From Sulfuricurvum sp. (GTDB lineage: Bacteria; Campylobacterota; Campylobacteria; Campylobacterales; Sulfurimonadaceae): DNA of 64,000 bases. Every line of letters starts with the position of its first letter. The first letter of the stretch is position 1. Below are positions 22,894 through 34,938 of this stretch, piece by piece. The position numbers and the translations under genes were made by a program. The notes beneath the pieces were generated by a model, which was given only the letters and a program-made list of their open reading frames with translations, made no database searches and was not told the DNA's origin. Where the stretch lies: the NCBI RefSeq assembly GCF_028713855.1, contig NZ_JAQTNN010000016.1, forward strand, positions 215 to 64,214. The letters run 5' to 3'.

Positions 22894-24588
22894 ATGCGAA
22901 TTATTGCTTTGCTGATGGCGTGGTCGTTTCTTGCCTTCGCCTCTCCTCTTCTTCTCACCTTCAAAGGTAACGAAAAAATATCAGATAGCAACCTCTACGA
23001 CGCGTTGGGCTTGCGAAAACCCTACGCGATAGAGGTTTGGGAAGCACATCCATCTATCGAATCTGCGGCAATTTCCCAAAGTCTCTCCGCATTGACAAGT
23101 TTTTACCGATCCAAAGGGTTCTACCACGCAAAAATCACCTCTGAAACCAAAGAAAACGGGGTTGTTTTCAAAATAGAAGAAAATGATCCCATCATCATCG
23201 GTGACGTCAAAATCAACAGTCCGATAGAAGTGAACTCAGCGGTTACGCTTCATAACGATGACGTATTTGATCAGGAAAAGTTCTCTGCATCCAAAGCCGA
23301 AATTAAAAAACGCTACGCCCAAGCGGGCTATTGCAATGCAGACTTTAATTCCAAAGCGTGGGTCGATATCGAAACCAATCATGCCTATCTTCTCTTCGAA
23401 GCGACTCCCGGAGAACCCTGCACCTTCGGTGCTGTCAATGTCGAATCGACGCCGAATATCAACGGAAAACTTACTGCCTCAATGCTCCGTTTTAAAGAGG
23501 GCGATCCCTACAGTGTCGAAGCCATCCGTCAAAGTTACGAAGCCCTATATGCGCAAGAAGGGGTAACACGGGTTATTATCAACGATAACGAGCGTAACGG
23601 CAGCGTGGTCCCGATCCTGCTCAATATCGAAGAGGCCGAACTTCCGATCCGCTTTACCGCAGGGTTAGGGTACAGCAGCGATGAGGGAATTACCGCTCAA
23701 ACAGGACTCAAACACCGCAATTTTTTAGGCAATCTCAAAACTCTCTCTCTGGATGCTCGTTATTCACAGATTAAGCAAGAAGCCTCCGGAACATTTGGTC
23801 TACCGCTCGAAAACCGGGGGCTTTTAGGTGCTGAAATCGGGTATAAAAATGAGATTTTCGACGGCTATAAAACCGAAAGCACCTATGAAAAATTAACCGC
23901 TAAATACCAAGACACCCCGGGATCAGCCATGTTTGGCGTGTTGTTGGATGAGGTTCAAACCTATCAGAGCCAAGACATCACTACCTTCCCCAACAGCAAG
24001 CTATTTATCGCTTCACCCATAGGCGAACTCAACTATGATACACGGGACAAGCCGCTCAATCCGACCAAAGGGTATTGGCTAAATGCCAACCTAATGGGAT
24101 CGTTGTATACCCCAGGACTCTCGGATGCTACCTATTTTAAATCTCTCCTCTCTGCCGCATACATCACCAGCATGAATGCGCATGTATTTGGTGCCAAAGT
24201 GAAATGGGGAACCCTCCGAATCTACGACGGCTCAATTCCTTCATCCTATCGATTTTACGCAGGGGGGATGAACTCCAACCGTGCGTACACCTATCGGGAT
24301 TTAGGTTCCAAGAACAGTGACGGCGATCCAATCGGGTTTGCATCGATAACGGAGGGGACGCTAGAGTATCGATTTCCGATTTATGAAGAGTTTCGAGGGG
24401 TTTTGTTCAGTGATGTCACCTTTGCCTCCCAAAATATTCTCCCCGATTATGCTAATGACGGATATTTAGGGGTAGGGGTAGGATTCCGTTATGTTACTCC
24501 GGTCGGACCTGTCGCAATTGATTTCGGGATTAATCCCGAAGATACGGCTCAATACGCGATCCATTTTCGAATCGGAGAACTGTTTTGA
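22894..24588 (+). CDS. tamA: TamA/BamA-family outer membrane protein
   Basis: POTRA-like N-terminus, GLGYSSDEG, RFYAGGMNSNRAY, GVGFRYVTPVGPVAIDFG; followed by a TamB-like gene. Confidence 0.85.
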   Translation: MRIIALLMAWSFLAFASPLLLTFKGNEKISDSNLYDALGLRKPYAIEVWEAHPSIESAAISQSLSALTSFYRSKGFYHAKITSETKENGVVFKIEENDPIIIGDVKINSPIEVNSAVTLHNDDVFDQEKFSASKAEIKKRYAQAGYCNADFNSKAWVDIETNHAYLLFEATPGEPCTFGAVNVESTPNINGKLTASMLRFKEGDPYSVEAIRQSYEALYAQEGVTRVIINDNERNGSVVPILLNIEEAELPIRFTAGLGYSSDEGITAQTGLKHRNFLGNLKTLSLDARYSQIKQEASGTFGLPLENRGLLGAEIGYKNEIFDGYKTESTYEKLTAKYQDTPGSAMFGVLLDEVQTYQSQDITTFPNSKLFIASPIGELNYDTRDKPLNPTKGYWLNANLMGSLYTPGLSDATYFKSLLSAAYITSMNAHVFGAKVKWGTLRIYDGSIPSSYRFYAGGMNSNRAYTYRDLGSKNSDGDPIGFASITEGTLEYRFPIYEEFRGVLFSDVTFASQNILPDYANDGYLGVGVGFRYVTPVGPVAIDFGINPEDTAQYAIHFRIGELF

Positions 24589-27404
24589 AAAGGTTCCGTA
24601 CTCTCCCTTGGCTCAAGTGGCTCAAACATCTGTTTGTAACGTTTCACTTTCTCCTCTACACTATGGTGCTATTGGCTTCAGCCGCTGTGTATATCGCCTT
24701 TCGTCCGGATAGCCTCGAAATCGTTAATACCTATTTCCTCGAACCGTTCGATATACACTATTCCCGTGCCGAAGGGTCATTGCTAGAGGGATTTACTATC
24801 CATAATCTCCACAGCAAAAAAATAACGGCTAAAACTCTCATTCTCAAATACAACCTCGTAAAAATGTTAGAGGGAGAACATACGATCGACTCAGTTCATA
24901 TTGACGGATTACAGCTCCATTTGGACGACTTTTTAACCGATGACAACGCCCCGTGGCCTTTTCCGACGTTCAAACTTCGCGAAGTAGTGATCACCAATCT
25001 CCAGCTTATCAGCAGTTATCCGATCGAACTGGATATTCATGCCAAAAATGGGAACTATGATGGAAATGTGATCAATTTTGCATCATTAGATGCGACTCTC
25101 AAATCTCGCTATGCCAACGGTGCGATTCATGGAAAAGTATCTAAAAATGCCCTCGTCGGAACAGGTGATCTGTATCCGAATGCGGTCGAGCTCGCTCCCT
25201 ACAGCGAGAAATTCACAACATTGCCCCGCGTAGTTCGGCTAACTATAACCGAACTCTCCGATACCAAAGCGCTGTTACAAACCTCCATTGCGAGCCTCAC
25301 GTCCAAACAAGATGCTACCGTGAGTGCCAACACCATAGCGCTTGATTTTCGCTATCGGTATGATGATGAGTATTTTGATGTCGATGCAACCTATGTGCTT
25401 CAACGCATCCAAGATTCAATGCAAACAAAACAACATTTGCGCTATACCCTAGAGGGCAAAACGGCAACCGAATTCGACGGACTCATCACCTCGCTTCAAC
25501 CCCTTCCGGCTAATACCTTGCATGGAGAGGTTACAGATGATGCAAACGGAGTGAACGGCACAGTATCCCTCGATGGAAGTACGCTGCATCTCTCCAGCCC
25601 TGATTACGACCGTTTTACATGGGATATGGGAAGTAATCATCAAAATCTCGCTTTTATCCCTTCCCTTCCAGAATTTTTACGTGCTTCACCCTTGCAGATA
25701 AAAGCGCATGGTACCTATATCCTCAGCACCAATGCCCTTGAGGGCTCTCTTGATGCCGCGCACAAGTCTGCCCTCTTTAAAGGGAAATTTTCAACCTTAA
25801 ACGACCATCATTCTCTAAGCGGAAACCTCACACTGCCAAGCGATGCACCGCTGTGGAAAAGCTGGAAACATAAACCGCCTGAACAGCTCATGATCTCACT
25901 CAGTAACGAAGCTAATGCTACTCGCATCAACCTCTCCGGAGATTCTTTAGCCCTATCGGCTGCTCTGATTGGAGAAAACATCAAAGGTTCAGGCAACTAT
26001 ATGGGTGCTTTTTTCGATTTTCAAGGAGGGATATCCGCCAACCAAAGCACCCTTCAAATCGATACTCTTATACCCTCTTTGTTTGCCACTCTCTCCAAAC
26101 TGGAACCTATCGAACTGAATCACGGAGAATATTACGATATGGAAGTTCGGGCAAAAACGCAGGTTACATTAAACGACACTCTCCATATCCAAAGTGATCT
26201 TACCATCCCCTGGTATGCGGCAGTGCTTGATTCTCAACGCTCTTTCGGGGGAACAGACGGTCAAGTCCGTATCGAATACAATGACGGTAATATCACCATT
26301 CCCCACTACCGTCTCGAAATTGCCGGGCATGACGTGATGAGTGATAAAACTTCCCACATGCATCTAGGAGCGGATGGAAAGCTTAGTATTGATGAATTTT
26401 GGATGTACGATACGCTGCTCCTCAACGGAACAATCTCTCCCGATTTGAGTGCATCGCTGCGGCTTCGATCGGATCGTTTCAGTTATCACGGTCCTGAAGG
26501 CTCTGCCCATGCGGGAGCCGATCTCACCTTTGAACGCGATTCACAAGCCAATCAAACACTTGCGGGCTCTTTAAACATATTAGACGCTACGATCACCTAC
26601 CTGCCGCTGCAACAGCTGAAAGTTATGGACGATGATATTGTGATCATTCAAGATGTCCGTCCCCCTAGTCATATAAAACTGGCTATGAACCTCCATATAA
26701 CGGCTCAACAGCCGATCCATTATCAAACCAAAGAGCTCGATTTGCGTCTCAGTCCTGATATCACTCTCTGGAAAGACCCTACCGCTCTCATGCAAATTTT
26801 AGGGATGGTAAGTATCCCTTCCGGCACCGCTAAAACGGGCGGGAAAGAGTTCACGATCAAACCGAGCGAAATCTATTTTGGCGGTGATGTTCCCCTGAAT
26901 CCCTACCTCAATCTGACCATTGCCCATGAAGTCGATTATAAAAAAATCCTCATCTATGTTACCCACACTCTCGATTCACCGATTTTCCTATTCAGCTCCG
27001 ATCCGGTGATGACCCAAAACGATATCATGAGCTATATTCTCTTCGGTGCTCCGGCCAATACGGCAGATAACAGTACCTCCGGCGTCCGTGCCGATGCAAC
27101 AAACTTTATGTTAGGGGCAGGTCTAAAAGGACTTATCAACGGAGCGACCAAAATTCAAATCGATACGATGAATATCCTCACTACTGCCGAGGGAGGTATG
27201 GGGTTTGAAGTGGGCGCCCGGCTAAACAAAGATCTCCGCGTCCTCTATAAAAATGATACCGTTTCCAGTGTCTTGATCCAATACACAGTCAATCGATGGC
27301 TCCGTCTGGATGCCGATGTCCATGAGCTTGGACAAGGAATTAATGCCGTTTATATCAAAGATTTTAGAGACTTTCTCCCACATAATAAGCCCGTTAAAAA
27401 ATAA
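24585..27404 (+). CDS. tamB: Translocation/assembly module TamB-like protein
   Basis: N-terminal TM, 939 aa beta-rich, DUF490-like C-terminus (NPYLNL, IYVTHTLDSP, MSYILFG). Confidence 0.8.
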   Translation: MKRFRTLPWLKWLKHLFVTFHFLLYTMVLLASAAVYIAFRPDSLEIVNTYFLEPFDIHYSRAEGSLLEGFTIHNLHSKKITAKTLILKYNLVKMLEGEHTIDSVHIDGLQLHLDDFLTDDNAPWPFPTFKLREVVITNLQLISSYPIELDIHAKNGNYDGNVINFASLDATLKSRYANGAIHGKVSKNALVGTGDLYPNAVELAPYSEKFTTLPRVVRLTITELSDTKALLQTSIASLTSKQDATVSANTIALDFRYRYDDEYFDVDATYVLQRIQDSMQTKQHLRYTLEGKTATEFDGLITSLQPLPANTLHGEVTDDANGVNGTVSLDGSTLHLSSPDYDRFTWDMGSNHQNLAFIPSLPEFLRASPLQIKAHGTYILSTNALEGSLDAAHKSALFKGKFSTLNDHHSLSGNLTLPSDAPLWKSWKHKPPEQLMISLSNEANATRINLSGDSLALSAALIGENIKGSGNYMGAFFDFQGGISANQSTLQIDTLIPSLFATLSKLEPIELNHGEYYDMEVRAKTQVTLNDTLHIQSDLTIPWYAAVLDSQRSFGGTDGQVRIEYNDGNITIPHYRLEIAGHDVMSDKTSHMHLGADGKLSIDEFWMYDTLLLNGTISPDLSASLRLRSDRFSYHGPEGSAHAGADLTFERDSQANQTLAGSLNILDATITYLPLQQLKVMDDDIVIIQDVRPPSHIKLAMNLHITAQQPIHYQTKELDLRLSPDITLWKDPTALMQILGMVSIPSGTAKTGGKEFTIKPSEIYFGGDVPLNPYLNLTIAHEVDYKKILIYVTHTLDSPIFLFSSDPVMTQNDIMSYILFGAPANTADNSTSGVRADATNFMLGAGLKGLINGATKIQIDTMNILTTAEGGMGFEVGARLNKDLRVLYKNDTVSSVLIQYTVNRWLRLDADVHELGQGINAVYIKDFRDFLPHNKPVKK

Positions 27405-27479: not shown

Positions 27480-27914
27480 ATGATACTCGAATTTATGCGT
27501 GACGATCACCGTGCCTGCGACCACCTTTATGCCGAAGCAGAAAGTGCCTTGCTAGCAAAAGATGCTGAAAAAGCCAAAACGATCTTTGATCAATTTTACA
27601 CTGCCACCAACCACCATTTCGATATGGAAGAAAAAGAGCTTTTTATCACCTTCGAAAAGCGGACAGGAATGATGGGGGGACCGACACAGATGATGCGTTA
27701 TGAGCACCAACAGCTTCGCAGTTTAATCGAATCGATGCGTCTTGCCCTGAATGAAAACCGTACAAACGATTTTTTCGGTATTGGTGAATCGATGATGATT
27801 ATGCTCCAGCAGCACAACATGAAAGAGGAACAAATGCTCTATCCAATGATCGATCGAACCCTGGGCGGTGATGCAGAACTTATCATACAAACATTGAGGG
27901 ATATGCCGATATGA
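27480..27914 (+). CDS. Hemerythrin-like (HHE) domain protein
   Basis: DHRACD, HHFDMEE, EHQQLR, HNMKEEQMLYP di-iron ligands. Confidence 0.9.
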   Translation: MILEFMRDDHRACDHLYAEAESALLAKDAEKAKTIFDQFYTATNHHFDMEEKELFITFEKRTGMMGGPTQMMRYEHQQLRSLIESMRLALNENRTNDFFGIGESMMIMLQQHNMKEEQMLYPMIDRTLGGDAELIIQTLRDMPI

Positions 27915-28147
27915 TTCTTCTCGATACTCGAGAACTCGATCATCCTATCCCTTTGGAGATGGCAGTCGATGCATTTAAAACTCTTAAAAGCAATGAGGTT
28001 ATCCACATGATTCATCGACGTGAACCGATCCCGCTGTTTGAGATCATTACAAAAAACGGCGGACGCTATCTCTCCTACCAAGATACAGATCAGCTATGGC
28101 ATATTTATATCACACGCGATGGTGATCTGGAGGCATTGCGTGTTTGA
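27911..28147 (+). CDS. DUF2249 domain protein
   Basis: LDTRELDHPIPL..HRREPIPL; ATGA-coupled to the hemerythrin gene. Confidence 0.8.
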   Translation: MILLDTRELDHPIPLEMAVDAFKTLKSNEVIHMIHRREPIPLFEIITKNGGRYLSYQDTDQLWHIYITRDGDLEALRV

Positions 28148-29405
28148 GGGATTATCACTCGATCAGGCGCCGCCGATTTCCGTCGTTCTCCGATTTTTTC
28201 TCAGCGTACCGGTTTTTGGAATATTCTTATCGGTGCTAATGATGCTCTACCCAACACAGATTCTTACAGTGAATCATCCTCTCTCACTCGCCGCGATTCA
28301 TCTGCTGTTTTTAGGGGTCATTACGATGAGTATGATCGGTGCACTCTTTCAAATGCAAAGCGTCCTCGGCGGACGCCCTATTCCTGCACCACTGGGAAAT
28401 GCCTTTTTAATTCATATTTTATTCAGCGTCGGCATCTTTACGTTGGCAGGGGCTTTTATCACCCAGATCGCTCCGCTCTTTGTTTTAGCCGCCACCCTCT
28501 TAGGGAGCGGTATCGTCTATACCGTTTTTTTAATTATCCCTTTACTGTTTAAAAGCAGCCTCCATGACACCCTCAGAGGGATGCGTCTGGCACTAATTTC
28601 TCTTTTTATCACCGCACTCCTAGGGATCGTTATGGCAGACGCTTATGCAGAGGGAAATTTCTCGACATTTCACGAGGCCATTCGAGCAACACACTACTCG
28701 TTTGCCCTTATCGGCTGGATCGGTGCGCTGATTATCGCGGTCGCATTTCAGGTAGTCGAGATGTTTTACGTCGCCACGCCGTACAGCGACTGGTGCAAAC
28801 ACAACGTTTTTCGCATCATCCCAGCCGCGCTCATCCTCAAAACGCTATGGCTCTTTTTGGCGCTTCCCTATGTTTGGGTGTTTGATCTTCTGTTAGCCGC
28901 GTTACTGATGGGATTTTTTACCACAACCGTGCGTCGGCTGCGTGAACGCAAACGACGTGTTAGCGATGTGAGTATTTGGTTTTGGAGTATAGGGATGGGA
29001 TTATTGTTTGTATCACTGATCGCCTATGGAGGCTATCTTTGGAATATGGAAGAAGTGATTCTACAGATTGCCGTTATCGCGTATGCACTGTTTGCTCTCT
29101 CTATCATTTTAGGGATGATGGGAAAAATCGTCCCTTTTTTAGTCTGGTTTCATCTCAGTTCAGCAGGATACATGGATGCCCCTATCATGTCGCATGTTAT
29201 TCCTCTTAAACGATCCCAATCGCTGTTTGGTTTGTTTGTTCTCGTCTGTGGTACAGCCGTCATGTCGGTATTGTATCCGCCTCTATTCATACTGACAGGG
29301 GTATTCTCCTTTGCCCTGTTTGCACTTTTGGGCTACAACCTCATCCAAGCATTAAAACTATACCGTTACACCCTCACTCACGGTACACGATTTACACTGG
29401 AGTAA
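28140..29405 (+). CDS. Polytopic membrane protein with conserved His (NnrS / haem-copper subunit I-like)
   Basis: GTG start at 28140 after GGAGG; about 12 TMs; AIHLLFLG, THYSFALIGW, KIVPFLVWFH. Confidence 0.7.
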   Translation: MFEGLSLDQAPPISVVLRFFLSVPVFGIFLSVLMMLYPTQILTVNHPLSLAAIHLLFLGVITMSMIGALFQMQSVLGGRPIPAPLGNAFLIHILFSVGIFTLAGAFITQIAPLFVLAATLLGSGIVYTVFLIIPLLFKSSLHDTLRGMRLALISLFITALLGIVMADAYAEGNFSTFHEAIRATHYSFALIGWIGALIIAVAFQVVEMFYVATPYSDWCKHNVFRIIPAALILKTLWLFLALPYVWVFDLLLAALLMGFFTTTVRRLRERKRRVSDVSIWFWSIGMGLLFVSLIAYGGYLWNMEEVILQIAVIAYALFALSIILGMMGKIVPFLVWFHLSSAGYMDAPIMSHVIPLKRSQSLFGLFVLVCGTAVMSVLYPPLFILTGVFSFALFALLGYNLIQALKLYRYTLTHGTRFTLE

Positions 29406-30007
29406 TACACATTCAAATAAACGAATCGGTTGATTATACTTCTCACGAGTATGACAATCAACCAACATGTAATCCATCCGGCGATAACATCCGAGGGGAA
29501 ATGAGCACCTAAACTTATACGTGAAATTCCCACTAAAACCACAAAAAATACCGCGACATACTTTTGCCAAGGGAATACAAATAATGGCCAGATGCTGGCC
29601 GCTATCAGTATTGCAAACGAAGCATGTCCGCTGGGTAGACTATGATGATATTCTGCCTCTCCGATAATATAAACCGTTTCAATCGGAAGTGCTAGCGGTG
29701 GTCTGGGAAAATCAAAGAAAGGTTTTACTACGCCCAACAACCAGCCATCGGCCAGATAAGCAACGCTAAAGACACTAATCGTACTGATCCAAAGCAACGT
29801 ATTGGTATCGGCCTGACCATTAGACGTTCTAGCAATGGCACGTGTAGCGATTAGACTCAAGATTGCAAGATACCATGGAAAAAGATGATGTGAGGCTGCA
29901 GCCGTTGCTGCAAGCATAATACTGTCTATAAAACCATTATGGATATTATTGATTAGATGAAATATCCAAACATTTAATCCACCCCAATCGTACAAATACC
30001 ACTTCAT
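29378..30007 (-). CDS. PAP2-family phosphatase
   Basis: KPFFDFPRP, SLPSGHA, SRISLGAHFPSDVIAG. Confidence 0.92.
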   Translation of the reverse strand: MKWYLYDWGGLNVWIFHLINNIHNGFIDSIMLAATAAASHHLFPWYLAILSLIATRAIARTSNGQADTNTLLWISTISVFSVAYLADGWLLGVVKPFFDFPRPPLALPIETVYIIGEAEYHHSLPSGHASFAILIAASIWPLFVFPWQKYVAVFFVVLVGISRISLGAHFPSDVIAGWITCWLIVILVRSIINRFVYLNVYYSSVNRVP

Positions 30008-30053: not shown

Positions 30054-30734
30054 TCACGGAACACGCTTCGAGCAGTTATAATCGACAGTGGCTTCGACTT
30101 GTGTTGTTTCATCGCTTTGTATAGGGCTTTCGGTCGGAACCGAAGCCACCATTGCCATCCCTTTCGCCATCATAGGTATCGGTCGTGATACTCCGCTAAA
30201 ATTGACCGTGCTCACGAAACACTCCAACCCCGTCTCTTTTGAAAAAGCTTCAGCTTGATCTCGTGCTTTACGCAATAATTCCATACGCAGGTTTCCTTGA
30301 GCCGTAGCCTCCTGAACACGACTGACACCCCAATTCAACTCCCCCTGACTCTTTCGGACACCAACAGCCGTAACCTTATCGATTTCCGTACTCAACGCAT
30401 TGTAAGTATCGATACTCTTAAACTCACATCCGAAGCTAAGATTTGCACTGTAGCCGACAAATTCACGCTTTTGATCTTTGTAGCTATATTGCGGAGAGAG
30501 ATAATAGCCTCCGCCTTGGCACATCGTTGCATTCGGATCAAACCGTTTTACCTCTGCGACGATGGTATTAAGGTGTTCTTTTATCGTATTTTGATTTTTG
30601 CCCTGCTCTTCAAAGCTCAAACTCCCGCGCAGAACATCCGGTTTTAAAAGGGTCTCCACCCGCTCAGAAGTTGTAATATGCATCTGGGCGCTTACTAGTA
30701 CCGGCAATAAACAGGCTATCGAAAATTTATACAT
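30054..30734 (-). CDS. SIMPL (DUF541) domain periplasmic protein
   Basis: Signal peptide, PDVL start motif, LSPQY..FVGYSA, A..KARDQAE pattern. Confidence 0.7.
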   Translation of the reverse strand: MYKFSIACLLPVLVSAQMHITTSERVETLLKPDVLRGSLSFEEQGKNQNTIKEHLNTIVAEVKRFDPNATMCQGGGYYLSPQYSYKDQKREFVGYSANLSFGCEFKSIDTYNALSTEIDKVTAVGVRKSQGELNWGVSRVQEATAQGNLRMELLRKARDQAEAFSKETGLECFVSTVNFSGVSRPIPMMAKGMAMVASVPTESPIQSDETTQVEATVDYNCSKRVP

Positions 30735-30761: not shown

Positions 30762-32300
30762 CTAATAACAGATACGGTTCCTGCCGGTCGTTTTCGCTGT
30801 ATACAGCGCATTGTCCGCCACCTTAATCATTTCCTCTTTATCTTGACCCTTATTGACAGTAGAAACTCCGATACTGACCGTCACTTTTCTACCTATTTCG
30901 AAATCATAATTTTCGATAACCTCTCTAAAATGCTCAGCCAATTGAAGGCTGTTTTTTAAATCGGTATTAACGGCAAGGACCATAAACTCTTCACCGCCCC
31001 AACGGACACAAACATCCGTAGAACGTGTATGCTGGTTCATAAGAGATCCCATGAGTTTGAGAACCCTGTCCCCTTTATCATGCCCATAGTTGTCATTGAT
31101 CATCTTGAAGTGATCCACGTCGATAAAAAGAATCGAAAACGGGGTTTGATAGCGATTATATTTTTGGACTTCATTATCCATTTGCTCCATCACCACCCTT
31201 CGATTTAAAAGCCCGGTCAAAGGATCGGTTCGCGACAGTGCATTAAGAAGTCTGTTTTGCTTTACAACATAGCGGATCAGGAAAGCGATAATACCAAAAA
31301 GCACCAGCATTGCACCGATAGCTATGCGCTGAATCGAAATCGTCCCCTCTTTTTGAACCAGATTTTTATTTTGGGATTCGATCTCTTTATTTAACGATTC
31401 AAGCTCTTCTTTTGCCCCGATTATCTTTTGCTGCTTCTCTTGATGTGATTGAAGAAGTTGTTTGAGAGTCTTCTCTTTCTCGGCAACTTTTTTCTCTTCC
31501 AGAAGAAGATTTTCTTTTTGAATAGCGATATTTTTTTGGATCGTATCGACTTCGAGCTGTTGAGCCTTTATCGTATTTTTCTGATCACTAATCGCTTCCA
31601 ATTGTTTCGTTATCATCGTATTTTGCGACTCTATCTTCGACTGTTGTTCCTTCAATGCCGCTTTTTGATTTTCAATAGCGGCAATCTTTTCGGATAACTC
31701 GTTATTTCTCTCTTTGATTTTTTTATTAAGTTCGGCAATCGTCTCTTTTTGCTCTTTAAGTTCATTTTGTGAACTTTTATAGAGTTTTGCGACGTCGATT
31801 TCCGTACCGCCCAGCAAGATTAAATCGGGAGAAACCCGCAGTGATCGGTTGATAAGATTAGGTTTATTTATCTCAAAAGTGACCATATCCCCGTTTTGGG
31901 TTAGATTGATCATCACCTTTTGTTTATCTTTGTAGTCATCACTGATGAGGAGGACACTGGATGAATCGTACTCATGGAAAAGCTTTTCATACATCGGTGC
32001 ATTGTCGCTGTCGACGTATACCGCCTGAATATTTTTCGGGATTTTTCCATCATAAAAAGAGACTCGGATTTTTTTATTTTCCAGCAGTTTTCTCGAAGAG
32101 AGGATTAAAAACATATTTTTCAGATTCTCATTCTTCGAGACAACAAGCAGATCGTAATCCTCAAACTTCGATTCATTCGGCCACGTCGTATGCTTCAAAA
32201 AATTATAGACATACGCTACTTTTACCTGATCACTGTTAATCTCTTTTGCACTAAGTGCAGTGAGCAACAATCCTAAAATTAGCCAAATAAATACTTTCAT
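30762..32300 (-). CDS. Diguanylate cyclase: YfiR/DUF4154 domain, long coiled coil, TM, GGDEF
   Basis: VKVAYVYNFLKHTTWP (YfiR-like), residues ~170-325 heptad-rich, TM ~326-345, DPLTGLLNRR, RSTD I-site, RWGGEEF. Confidence 0.9.
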   Translation of the reverse strand: MKVFIWLILGLLLTALSAKEINSDQVKVAYVYNFLKHTTWPNESKFEDYDLLVVSKNENLKNMFLILSSRKLLENKKIRVSFYDGKIPKNIQAVYVDSDNAPMYEKLFHEYDSSSVLLISDDYKDKQKVMINLTQNGDMVTFEINKPNLINRSLRVSPDLILLGGTEIDVAKLYKSSQNELKEQKETIAELNKKIKERNNELSEKIAAIENQKAALKEQQSKIESQNTMITKQLEAISDQKNTIKAQQLEVDTIQKNIAIQKENLLLEEKKVAEKEKTLKQLLQSHQEKQQKIIGAKEELESLNKEIESQNKNLVQKEGTISIQRIAIGAMLVLFGIIAFLIRYVVKQNRLLNALSRTDPLTGLLNRRVVMEQMDNEVQKYNRYQTPFSILFIDVDHFKMINDNYGHDKGDRVLKLMGSLMNQHTRSTDVCVRWGGEEFMVLAVNTDLKNSLQLAEHFREVIENYDFEIGRKVTVSIGVSTVNKGQDKEEMIKVADNALYTAKTTGRNRICY

Positions 32301-32306
32301 AACGTC

Positions 32307-34445
32307 CTAAATACTCATGCTGAATGTGATCGAAATCATTTGTGTATCTTGTGGGGATTTATACTTTGCACTACTATTATAGCGTACACCGTAATAATGC
32401 TCGTCAAAGAGGTTATCCACCCTCAAAGCAATTTTTTTATTCTGATCAAACGCGTAGCTGGCAAAAAGGTTAGTAACAAAATGTCCCTCAACCGTTGCGA
32501 ATTGGCCGTTATCATACGGCGCCGCCGCAATCGGGCTTACCCAGATGCATGAAGGGGAGAACCGCCAGTTTTGATACCGTAGTGTTGCACCCGATTTGAG
32601 CACATGCTTGGATTGGTAGGGGAGCTCATAATTATAGGTATCCTCTATTTTTCCATCGATATAACTGTAATTTGCCCAATAGCTCACATCATACCCCGGA
32701 AAATACGAATGCCCCTGATATGAAGCATCTCCGCCATAGACGGTTGCTGAAACCGAATTTGCCGCTCCGACCGCATGAATAATCGTCGTATCAGGGATAA
32801 AATAAATTTTATCCGGTAAATCCTCTTCATTTGAAATAATGTCTTTAACGGTTGCATAGTAGATTGAAAAGCTGAGTTGATCGTTCTGACTCAACAAAAT
32901 GTCTAAATCATACTCGTAGTTTTTGCTTTTTTCGGGCTTCAGATCGGGATTTGCCACCCTGAAACGATCCGTTTGATAAGTATTACCATCCCCCAGGGTA
33001 TTCGGTTGCAACGCATTACCGTAAATCTTGTATTTTTGATAATTCGAAGGGGCCAGATACGCTTGTGCATAGATAAGTTTTTGGGTCACATTATCGGTGG
33101 AGTAAAGCAGAGCAAAACGGGGGTTAAACGTCGAACCGTACGAAGAGCTATGATCGTAACGCCCCGCGAGAGAGAATTGTAAATCATCATCCAATCGTAT
33201 CTGATCTTGGAGATAGATCGCCTGATTATTCCACTGGATATGATAAATCGGCGCTTCGATATTTGATCCGGCGAAATAAATAGGGCCAGTGACAGAGGGA
33301 GCAGCTAAATCAACCGTCATCGGAGTAGATTTAAATGATTCGTACGACATTCCGAAAATAAGGTTATGCTTCTCGAAATTTTTATTCAACGTCTCCTCCG
33401 CCGCGTACCTTTGGGAATAGGAGTATTTGTATCCCGGAACATACGACGTGTATTTATTGATAAAATAACTATCTTTCAGCAACTCTGTGGAATCATAGCT
33501 CAGCGTGGTCGTTGATTGCACATCATCCAAAATTTTACCGCTGTATCGTCCGAAATAACCGAATAATTCCGTATTTAAATTGGAGTTATTGTCGTAAAGG
33601 TTACTCTTCGAGTTCCCTCCGTTCATAGCAATCAAGGTCGATTCAGACGAATAGCGGTAGTTTATCCCCATGTCAAACCCTCCGTTTTCATACCGTGCAC
33701 CAACCGATTTGGTGATAGTGGGCTGAAAATCGAACTCTCTATCCTGTGCGCTTTGGATAACACTCGATCCGAGAGTGACATCTTGTCTTAAAAAATCATT
33801 AGGGTACTCTTTTTCAAAATCATAATCTTGATCATGATGATAATGGGCTTTCAGCGTTAACATCCCTTTGTACAATGGTAAAGATTTAACGCCGTACAGA
33901 TAGTTGTACCCTTTTTTACCCCCCGTGACGCTCAACTCATCTTTCGGCGCCTTTGAACTAATAAGATTGATTACCCCACTCATCGCATCCGCACCGTAAA
34001 CAACCGATGCTGGACCGTACAAAACTTCCACCCGTTCGATTCCAAACAGCGGATACTGCATCGAGTGGCTAAGAATTTCTCCGTCTGTCTGATCGATCTC
34101 TATTCCGTCTTGGAGCACTTTAAAATAGTTTGTCCCCATAACCCCACGAATGCCGATCTGATTCAAAATACCGCTATCGGCATAACGCATCACTTGAAAT
34201 CCGGGGAGATCACCTAAAAGCTCATCCAGGCCTCGATAACCGCGATCTTCGATTTGTTCTTTCGAAACAACAACCATTTTGGCAGGGGTAAAGTTCAAAC
34301 TTTGCACTGATTTGGAAGCCGAAGTCACTTTTAGCTGTTGCAAATCATACAAATCGAGTCCAAAAACATCATCCATCAAATCGATTTTATATTCATTGCC
34401 ACCCAGCAATGAAGCTGCAGCGATGAGAGACAAAAGAAGCTTCAT
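32307..34445 (-). CDS. TonB-dependent receptor
   Basis: LQQLKVTSASK N-terminal motif, IERVEVLYGPASVVYGADAMSGVINLIS, VDNLFDEHY. Confidence 0.93.
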   Translation of the reverse strand: MKLLLSLIAAASLLGGNEYKIDLMDDVFGLDLYDLQQLKVTSASKSVQSLNFTPAKMVVVSKEQIEDRGYRGLDELLGDLPGFQVMRYADSGILNQIGIRGVMGTNYFKVLQDGIEIDQTDGEILSHSMQYPLFGIERVEVLYGPASVVYGADAMSGVINLISSKAPKDELSVTGGKKGYNYLYGVKSLPLYKGMLTLKAHYHHDQDYDFEKEYPNDFLRQDVTLGSSVIQSAQDREFDFQPTITKSVGARYENGGFDMGINYRYSSESTLIAMNGGNSKSNLYDNNSNLNTELFGYFGRYSGKILDDVQSTTTLSYDSTELLKDSYFINKYTSYVPGYKYSYSQRYAAEETLNKNFEKHNLIFGMSYESFKSTPMTVDLAAPSVTGPIYFAGSNIEAPIYHIQWNNQAIYLQDQIRLDDDLQFSLAGRYDHSSSYGSTFNPRFALLYSTDNVTQKLIYAQAYLAPSNYQKYKIYGNALQPNTLGDGNTYQTDRFRVANPDLKPEKSKNYEYDLDILLSQNDQLSFSIYYATVKDIISNEEDLPDKIYFIPDTTIIHAVGAANSVSATVYGGDASYQGHSYFPGYDVSYWANYSYIDGKIEDTYNYELPYQSKHVLKSGATLRYQNWRFSPSCIWVSPIAAAPYDNGQFATVEGHFVTNLFASYAFDQNKKIALRVDNLFDEHYYGVRYNSSAKYKSPQDTQMISITFSMSI

Positions 34446-34790: not shown

Positions 34791-34850
34791 ATTTTATTGA
34801 AAAGAAAGTACTGAGTAGGTTAAATGTCATAGTTAAGGGGGTTGGATAGA

Positions 34851-34938
34851 TGGCGGACAGCTAGGGGTTCGAACCCTAGATAGGTTGCCCTATACACGCG
34901 TTCCAGGCGTGCGCCTTCGACCACTCGGCCAGCTGTCC
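34851..34938 (-). tRNA. tRNA-Ser(GGA)
   Basis: GGACAGC/GCTGTCC acceptor stem, CACGC-CTGGAAC-GCGTG anticodon arm, long variable arm, GTTCGAACC T-loop, encoded CCA. Confidence 0.97.

Follow-up and report, generated by a model that had tools for sequence, protein, structure and literature searches.

A TonB-dependent receptor and a stalked, YfiR-headed diguanylate cyclase in Sulfuricurvum: a possible two-gene relay across the cell envelope

To our knowledge, only a few routes by which events at the outer membrane are signaled into the cell are understood, namely FecA-type sigma/anti-sigma relays, Rcs, Cpx/NlpE, and YfiBNR. In YfiBNR (TpbB/DgcN) of P. aeruginosa and E. coli, and likewise in HmsCDE of Yersinia, a periplasmic YfiR fold controls an inner-membrane GGDEF protein, with an outer-membrane partner alongside (PMC4655355). 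A published precedent for signaling from a receptor to a periplasmic partner and on to an inner-membrane kinase is the PahS-PahP-PahK/PahR system of Cycloclasticus, in which periplasmic PahP docks on the outer-membrane receptor and then on the kinase (PMC10570129). Here, we describe a gene pair from Sulfuricurvum sp., encoding a TonB-dependent outer-membrane receptor (TBDR) and a diguanylate cyclase whose periplasmic YfiR-fold head is carried on a long coiled-coil stalk. The pair occupies positions 30762 to 34445 of a 64,000-nucleotide stretch of contig NZ_JAQTNN010000016.1 (hereafter the window, to which coordinates refer unless another contig is named). We propose, with a probability of roughly 0.5, that the two genes form a trans-envelope relay in which the state of the receptor is read by the YfiR-fold head, which switches the synthesis of cyclic di-GMP (c-di-GMP).

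Both genes, and all of their features given below, lie on the minus strand, the receptor as an open reading frame (ORF) of 712 amino acids (32307..34445) and the cyclase as an ORF of 512 amino acids (30762..32300), for which the order of head, stalk, transmembrane helix, and GGDEF domain was assigned from Pfam and NCBIfam domains and an AlphaFold2 (AF2) model. The junction between them reads ...TAG GACGTT ATG, with the six-nucleotide spacer GACGTT (32301..32306) and an AGGA (Shine-Dalgarno) sequence that overlaps the receptor stop codon, and translation of the two genes is therefore likely to be coupled. The cyclase begins with a putative signal peptide (residues 1-18, 32247..32300), MKVFIWLILGLLLTALSA, read directly from the sequence, which has no lipobox and would be cleaved between ALSA and KE. 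The head that follows (residues 25-163, 31812..32228) matches PF13689 (DUF4154/YfiR) with 80.2 bits (cut-off 24.9; E 2e-22), and modeled alone by AF2 it reached a pLDDT of 89.7 and a pTM of 0.83. When this model was searched with Foldseek, the top 15 matches in the PDB were all YfiR chains (TM-scores 0.65-0.78, E ~1e-7), and the next fold had an E-value about 1000-fold weaker. A sequence search of the PDB with the head returned nothing at E <= 1, and the modeled head is therefore best described as a distant YfiR-fold domain, not an orthologue of YfiR.

A near-invariant motif, GGTEIDVA (residues 164-171, 31788..31811), was recognized in alignments of the family at the junction of head and stalk, and it served as the anchor for the measurements of heptad phase. 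The stalk itself, delimited by heptad analysis and the AF2 model, spans residues 172-325 (154 residues, 31326..31787), which with a rise of 0.1485 nm per residue makes about 22.9 nm. No proline occurs in the stalk, and one heptad phase is kept over all 22 heptads, with a hydrophobic residue (I/L/V) at position a in 21 of the 22 and glutamine at position d in 11. The AF2 monomer model of the full-length protein (pLDDT 81) has helices at residues 181-293 and 298-357. A conserved hairpin at the intervening kink (294-297) was considered and ruled out, as the kink is of low confidence, falls at Gly294, which is not conserved among homologues, and leaves the heptad phase uninterrupted. Hydropathy places a single transmembrane helix at residues 326-346 (31263..31325), followed by the basic stretch RYVVKQNR, and the second modeled helix (298-357) passes unbroken through it to the DPLT motif with which the GGDEF domain begins, with only about 12 linker residues between the membrane and that domain.

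The catalytic domain (residues 358-509, 30774..31229; Pfam E 4e-45) opens with this junction motif (DPLT, residues 359-362) and carries an RSTD inhibitory site (I-site; residues 426-429, 31014-31025) and a GGEEF active-site motif (residues 435-439, 30984-30998). These motifs, together with the substrate- and metal-binding motif D-x-D-x-F-K-x-x-N-D...G-H-D-x-G-D, are invariant or nearly so across homologues, and the conservation of GGEEF, RSTD, and DVDHFKMINDNYGHDKGD is that expected of a GGDEF cyclase, a family in which the RxxD site five residues ahead of the active-site motif is optional. Foldseek matches of the full-length model were to GGDEF structures only, the best being cyclases linked by coiled coils (PadC 5llx, SiaD 7e6g, and DgcR 6zxb). 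The stalk would be periplasmic, because it lies between the signal peptide and YfiR-fold head on one side and the only transmembrane helix on the other, and because the GGDEF domain needs cytoplasmic GTP; a cytoplasmic coil was ruled out, since it would entail a cytoplasmic YfiR head and a periplasmic GGDEF domain.

An earlier note on this DNA, made from its letters and predicted ORFs, had read much of the same anatomy, and every feature that it described is confirmed. The receptor stop codon does lie 6 nucleotides from the cyclase start; the signal peptide and the YfiR/DUF4154-like domain, placed at residues ~20-165, are recovered by the Pfam match and by fold; the uninterrupted coiled coil of ~170-325 and ~23 nm agrees with our boundaries; and the GGEEF motif and RxxD I-site are intact. 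A single transmembrane helix is present as claimed, slightly earlier in the protein than the note implied. The note had also seen neither an STN extension on the receptor nor an anti-sigma factor, and we likewise found no Pfam match to STN in the receptor, whose plug begins after only about 35 residues of the mature protein, and no sigma or anti-sigma gene within ~8 kb of the pair.

The long stalk is not peculiar to this protein. The family to which it belongs is large: searched against 1.84 billion representative proteins, the head by itself gave 1152 clusters at the 50% identity level, and most of the best 150 of these are fusions of 500-1700 amino acids. Across the 102 representative clusters with a recognizable junction and transmembrane helix, which form the basis of the stalk statistics, the median stalk is 148 residues and the mode 141, only three stalks are shorter than 134 (84, 120, and 127), and 3 prolines occur among the 16,531 residues. 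Stalk lengths form a ladder of heptads (…134, 141, 148, 155, 162, 169, 176, 183, 190, 197…), with 61 of the 102 in one class modulo 7 and 20 more off by a single residue (81 of 102 in total), an offset within the error of locating the membrane boundary. The core is unusual and, throughout the family, polar, with L, I, V, M, F, or A at 83% of a positions, and with glutamine (42%) and leucine (18%) at position d.

The phase is stricter still when it is followed through the membrane. In members with a cyclase output, DxLT lies 166, 173, 180, 187 (the window protein), 201, or 208 residues beyond the head junction, so that 77 of 77 are at 5 modulo 7. In the 87 members with a kinase output, the distance to the phosphorylated histidine is 0 modulo 7 in 60, 4 in 13, and 2 in 12, and stutters of the cytoplasmic linker, or differences in signaling polarity, may account for these three classes. 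Given this strict heptad quantization, which extends across the membrane from head to catalytic domain, the stalk is one continuous phased helix, with the signature of an element that transmits a conformational signal rather than of a spacer that merely holds the head in position. The family floor of ~113-120 residues corresponds to ~17-18 nm and the mode of 141 residues to 21 nm, with the window protein (154 residues) at 22.9 nm, and the head would add about 3-4 nm to each. Such totals come near the widths usually quoted for the periplasm in general.

The receptor-cyclase pairing is itself conserved. Full-length homologues of the cyclase occur in Sulfuricurvum, Arcobacter, and Sulfurimonas, and a TBDR gene lies 7-39 nucleotides upstream on the same strand, with all other neighbors differing, in Arcobacter aquimarinus, in a Sulfurimonas metagenome-assembled genome (MAG), and in a metagenomic relative at 34% identity. 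The output can be exchanged without loss of the partner, as a TBDR also stands directly upstream of members with a histidine kinase output at three loci and at a Bacteroidetes locus (L030), whose upstream ORF aligns over its full length with other partner TBDRs at ~24% identity; fusions of the head to a SpoIIE output also exist. For a broader count, metagenome contigs were scanned with an alignment restricted to the head and junction, which gave 80 loci; the scan from which L030 came used the full-length alignment and returned little but unrelated cyclases through the generic GGDEF pattern. A TBDR is directly upstream on the same strand at 44 of the 80 loci and elsewhere within 4.5 kb (divergent, downstream, or with overlapping start calls) at 11, none was detected within 4.5 kb at 19, and the flank was too short to judge at the remaining 6, leaving 74 assessable.

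Adjacency of this kind is not due to chance, the chance level being well below 1%, because there are only ~7 TBDR genes in the 2.8 Mb of the window's genome. Distances among partner TBDRs and among heads are correlated (Mantel r 0.60, a value reached in 0 of 2000 permutations), which shows co-inheritance, not necessarily contact. The head has a patchy distribution in the phylum to which the window belongs (4 of 401 genomes, 3 of 63 genera), yet the module recurs with widely divergent TBDRs and heads, including in a Bacteroidetes MAG, and lateral spread of the receptor-sensor pair is therefore suggested.

A further line of evidence comes from the receptor. Its Pfam domains are a plug (residues 52-158) and a TonB_dep_Rec_b-barrel (248-679) of the 22-strand type, and the genome has 8 TonB_C matches, 6 of them above the Pfam cut-off, so that plug, barrel, and energizing system are all present, with the TonB box (LKVTSAS) assigned by position only. 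No NCBIfam substrate family was reached at cut-off, the best being TonB-hemin at 129 bits against 317. The mature N-terminus (residues 17-45, 34311..34397), NEYKIDLMDDVFG-LDLYDLQQLKVTSASK, was defined by sequence comparison and consists, in order, of an acidic segment, an LDLxxLxxhKh motif, and the presumed TonB box. Sensor-adjacent TBDRs of divergent lineages have a similar arrangement, in which an acidic stretch after the signal peptide is followed by h-D/S-h-x-x-L-x-x-h-K-h-x-S-A-S-K, and a frequent form among the TBDRs of the metagenomic loci is DSLDIYD LDLTQLSKLKITSASK. The motif is absent from three ordinary TBDRs of the same genome (contigs C6 and C12), which have classical TonB boxes, and it sits where FecA-type transducers have their STN domain. 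We infer from this comparison that the N-terminal peptide is a candidate docking site for the YfiR-like head. A single TBDR subfamily was also considered as the common denominator of the partners and is not supported, as distant partner receptors align over the plug only.

Taken as a working model, the relay would operate as follows. The state of the receptor, whether ligand-loaded or TonB-engaged, would be reported to the YfiR-fold head, which would be carried across the periplasm on a presumably dimeric, heptad-phase-locked coiled coil of ~23 nm. The head would probably dock on the receptor's N-terminal peptide (LDLxxLxxLKVTSASK), next to or including the TonB box, and its docking or release would alter the packing or register of the stalk helices. 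As the predicted stalk helix continues through the membrane into the DxLT junction, such a change could re-orient the two catalytic domains and thereby switch c-di-GMP synthesis, with the RxxD I-site adding product inhibition that would limit the output. In evolutionary terms, the window module would be a cis-fused version of split cassettes composed of a TBDR, a YfiR-like protein, and a CHASE8-type sensor, with a TBDR in the place of YfiB.

Several observations weigh against such a relay. About a quarter of the assessable loci (19 of 74) have no TBDR within 4.5 kb, yet their sensors keep long stalks (133-245 residues), and a GGDEF relative at 26% identity (P0088) also has no TBDR nearby, its upstream neighbor being an M16 peptidase. 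The Mantel correlation can come from shared ancestry alone, the 77 of 77 result in phase represents only about five independent indel events, and TBDRs of distant modules share little past the plug, so that they do not establish a single subfamily of receptors co-evolving with the heads. Stalks vary between 113 and ~250 residues, a spread of more than 10 nm that enforces no fixed distance, and the polar core, with its family-wide 42% of glutamine at position d, makes the oligomeric state and rigidity of the stalk uncertain. The proposal of the earlier note that receptor and YfiR-headed cyclase form a relay thus gains a conserved functional unit, with the TBDR upstream whatever the output and despite differing flanks, and has to accommodate the TBDR-free loci. 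Its idea that the stalk holds the head at about the width of the periplasm fares similarly under the survey of stalk lengths that the note had proposed: stalks are long throughout the family, from the floor of ~113-120 residues upward and most often 141, and are not a precise ruler. Among the TBDR-free sensors are two groups (L157, L171, and L174; and L154, L161, L167, and L176), each with a neighborhood that is conserved among its own members and contains no TBDR over 4.5 kb; the partner of these sensors, if any, must be encoded elsewhere.

The orphan sensors and the spread of stalk lengths therefore keep other explanations alive, of which the one we take most seriously, and nevertheless regard as unlikely, is that the receptor imports a small molecule that the head then detects without touching the receptor, as the hybrid two-component sensors of Bacteroides detect products imported by SusC, the stalk serving to transmit the signal and to place the head near the exit of the barrel. 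Such a scheme fits the gene pairing equally well, and sensors without a nearby TBDR are easier to explain by a soluble cue. YfiR is reported to bind small molecules, and the next structural neighbors of the head after YfiR are, weakly (E ~1e-3), substrate-binding proteins. Detection of a soluble ligand, however, needs no stalk of at least 17 nm with a sharp lower limit of length, no ligand pocket was identified in the head, and an N-terminal motif restricted to sensor-adjacent receptors suggests a protein-protein interface.

The stalk length, which is near quoted periplasm widths and has a lower bound, can also be turned to a different use, in which the module, like YfiBNR, reports envelope stress or periplasm width instead of receptor occupancy. 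The stalk would then be a ruler, with the head in contact with outer membrane or peptidoglycan only while the spacing is normal, and the receptor would be an anchor or simply a co-regulated gene. Orphan sensors that keep long stalks would fit such an envelope-state sensor, as would the homology to YfiR, which is part of an envelope-stress circuit (PMC4655355). Nevertheless, we consider it improbable, as it leaves unexplained why the neighbor should specifically be a TBDR at 55 of 74 loci and why those receptors have a special N-terminus in common; stalk lengths vary by more than 10 nm, and no OmpA/Pal-like YfiB homologue is nearby, with no such gene found within ~8 kb of the pair. It is least probable, and in our judgment very much so, that the two genes merely share an operon for expression, for example in a biofilm or uptake program, with the coiled coil as a dimerization element of the cyclase. 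Operon structure is admittedly the sole direct observation, and scans for promoters and terminators were uninformative, giving no more sites than in shuffled sequence. However, the pairing outlasts both exchange of the output (GGDEF or histidine kinase) and transfer between lineages, with other neighbors all changing, and dimerization requires neither at least 140 periplasmic residues nor a heptad phase that is locked to a head in the periplasm. We favor the receptor-to-cyclase relay over these alternatives on the strength of the minimum stalk length, the phase lock, and the distinctive N-terminus of the receptors.

The same genome also encodes unfused versions of the module. All three of its Pfam DUF4154 matches, and a weak fourth, have as neighbors a TBDR and either a c-di-GMP protein or a kinase, and at least 4 of its ~7 TBDRs thus appear to be wired to signaling proteins. 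On contig C13 (27543-33383, locus L178), a response regulator with GGDEF and EAL domains is followed in turn by an unfused YfiR-like protein (DUF4154, 120 bits), by a histidine kinase with CHASE8 and HAMP domains, and by a TBDR. On contig C10 (85522-89578, L179), a TBDR is divergent from a small secreted DUF4154-like protein (borderline at 24.6 bits) and a membrane GGDEF cyclase, and on contig C7 (131719-135838, L177) a TBDR is divergent from a histidine kinase, with a 177-amino-acid secreted protein that is likewise borderline (DUF4154, 16.6 bits). The description of YfiR as a separate soluble element, which the earlier note had taken as established, thus still applies within this very genome.

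The association of TBDR, YfiR-like protein, and kinase is already known to annotators, because curated NCBIfam models exist for the trio: NF053590 (TOL_0244 TBDR), NF053591 (TOL_0243 YfiR-like), and NF053592 (kinase near YfiR-like). The window proteins score far below cut-off on the first two (65.4 bits where 645 are required, and 50.6 where 125 are), and no CHASE8 kinase was found in the window. The C13 cassette comes closer, also below cut-off on all three models (111.8 against 645, 104 against 125, and 127 against 194 bits). Our literature search found no study of the split trio or of the stalk-fused architecture. Every part, then, comes from a family that is already known, and the split trio has its place in the catalogue; of the cyclase in its stalk-fused form, with its heptad rules and glutamine core, we found no description.

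Recurrence of the pair in many metagenomic lineages suggests an unstudied route for bringing an outer-membrane signal into the cell. If the relay is real, a TonB-dependent receptor would be coupled mechanically, and without intermediates, to the synthesis of a second messenger. The design rules that emerge from the sequences, namely a stalk no shorter than the width of the periplasm, a heptad phase strictly kept between head and catalytic domain, and swappable outputs, would make trans-envelope and long-range coiled-coil signaling testable with simple mutants of length and phase. It is tempting to speculate further, on odds that we would place somewhat short of even, that modules of a TBDR and a YfiR fold, split or fused, represent a third general mode of TonB-dependent trans-envelope signaling beside STN/anti-sigma relays and import-then-sense. 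In the fused form, a switch peptide at the receptor N-terminus would be captured by the head at the tip of its glutamine-rich coil, which would span the periplasm, and a change of register or rotation would travel mechanically for more than 25 nm, crossing the inner membrane, to outputs that can replace one another (GGDEF, histidine kinase, and probably SpoIIE phosphatase). In length, such a helix would exceed every other phase-locked signaling helix known in bacteria.

The immediate neighbors of the pair are genes for SIMPL, PAP2, tRNA-Ser, and a 145-amino-acid membrane protein. The SIMPL/DUF541 (30054-30734) and PAP2 phosphatase (29378-30007) genes lie on the minus strand 3' of the cyclase, with gaps of 27 and 46 nucleotides, and they may be co-transcribed with it here, although neither travels with the module in other genera. 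Just 5' of the receptor promoter region is a tRNA-Ser(GGA) gene (34834-34938, minus strand); ARAGORN also called an overlapping tRNA-Arg(TCG) on the plus strand at 34834-34938, which is probably a mirror artifact. Other genes, all on the plus strand, include one for a TamB-like protein of 939 amino acids (24585-27404), a component of the translocation and assembly module for outer-membrane proteins, a few kilobases from the pair; a hemerythrin gene followed by one for a 461-amino-acid polytopic membrane protein without a Pfam match (27480-29405); and a lone ORF6N/Rha-like regulatory gene of phage type (36865-37422), between genes for a dGTPase-like HD protein and an HI0933-like flavoprotein.

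Set against the systems with which we began, the window module has the YfiR fold and the GGDEF output of YfiBNR and HmsCDE in a different arrangement. Its YfiR fold is not a free repressor and is instead fused in cis through the 154-residue coiled coil; its cyclase has only DUF4154 and GGDEF domains in Pfam, and thus neither a CHASE8/PAS-like periplasmic domain nor a HAMP domain; and its outer-membrane partner is a TBDR rather than an OmpA/Pal-like lipoprotein. The distance is also evident in the family models, as the head scores 35.5 bits on the YfiR model NF053586 (cut-off 85) and the cyclase 122 bits on the YfiN/DgcN model NF007423 (cut-off 325), through its GGDEF part only. The head has no cysteines, so that the disulfide chemistry of YfiR is absent. 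The split NCBIfam trio brings together the same three functions (a TBDR, a periplasmic element of YfiR fold, and an inner-membrane enzyme), and it differs from the window module in that here a long stalk joins head and output in one protein, CHASE8 is lacking, and GGDEF stands in place of a kinase.

TonB-dependent transducers such as FecA-FecR-FecI and FpvA share with our model a TBDR proposed to signal through a segment N-terminal to the TonB box; in contrast to them, the window receptor has a candidate peptide of ~29 residues in place of an STN domain (~80 residues), has no gene for an anti-sigma or extracytoplasmic function (ECF) sigma factor within ~8 kb, and would act on c-di-GMP instead of transcription. 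The Pah system comes closest to the relay among published concepts, and its PahP is a free, 318-amino-acid protein of the substrate-binding type that is said to shuttle, whereas the partner here is a YfiR fold on a stalk (PMC10570129). At the catalytic end, the closest parallels are PadC, DgcR, WspR, and DgcB, in which a helical linker likewise ends in DxLT and its register sets activity, and the cytoplasmic linkers of PadC and DgcR have the same heptad-quantized length signature as the window family. The window cyclase has the hallmarks of this coiled-coil-regulated group, namely a predicted helix (298-357) leading into DPLT (359-362) and a phase of 5 modulo 7 in 77 of 77 members. The known linkers, however, are short and cytoplasmic, whereas the phased helix described here would extend over ~187 residues, starting in the periplasm and crossing the membrane.

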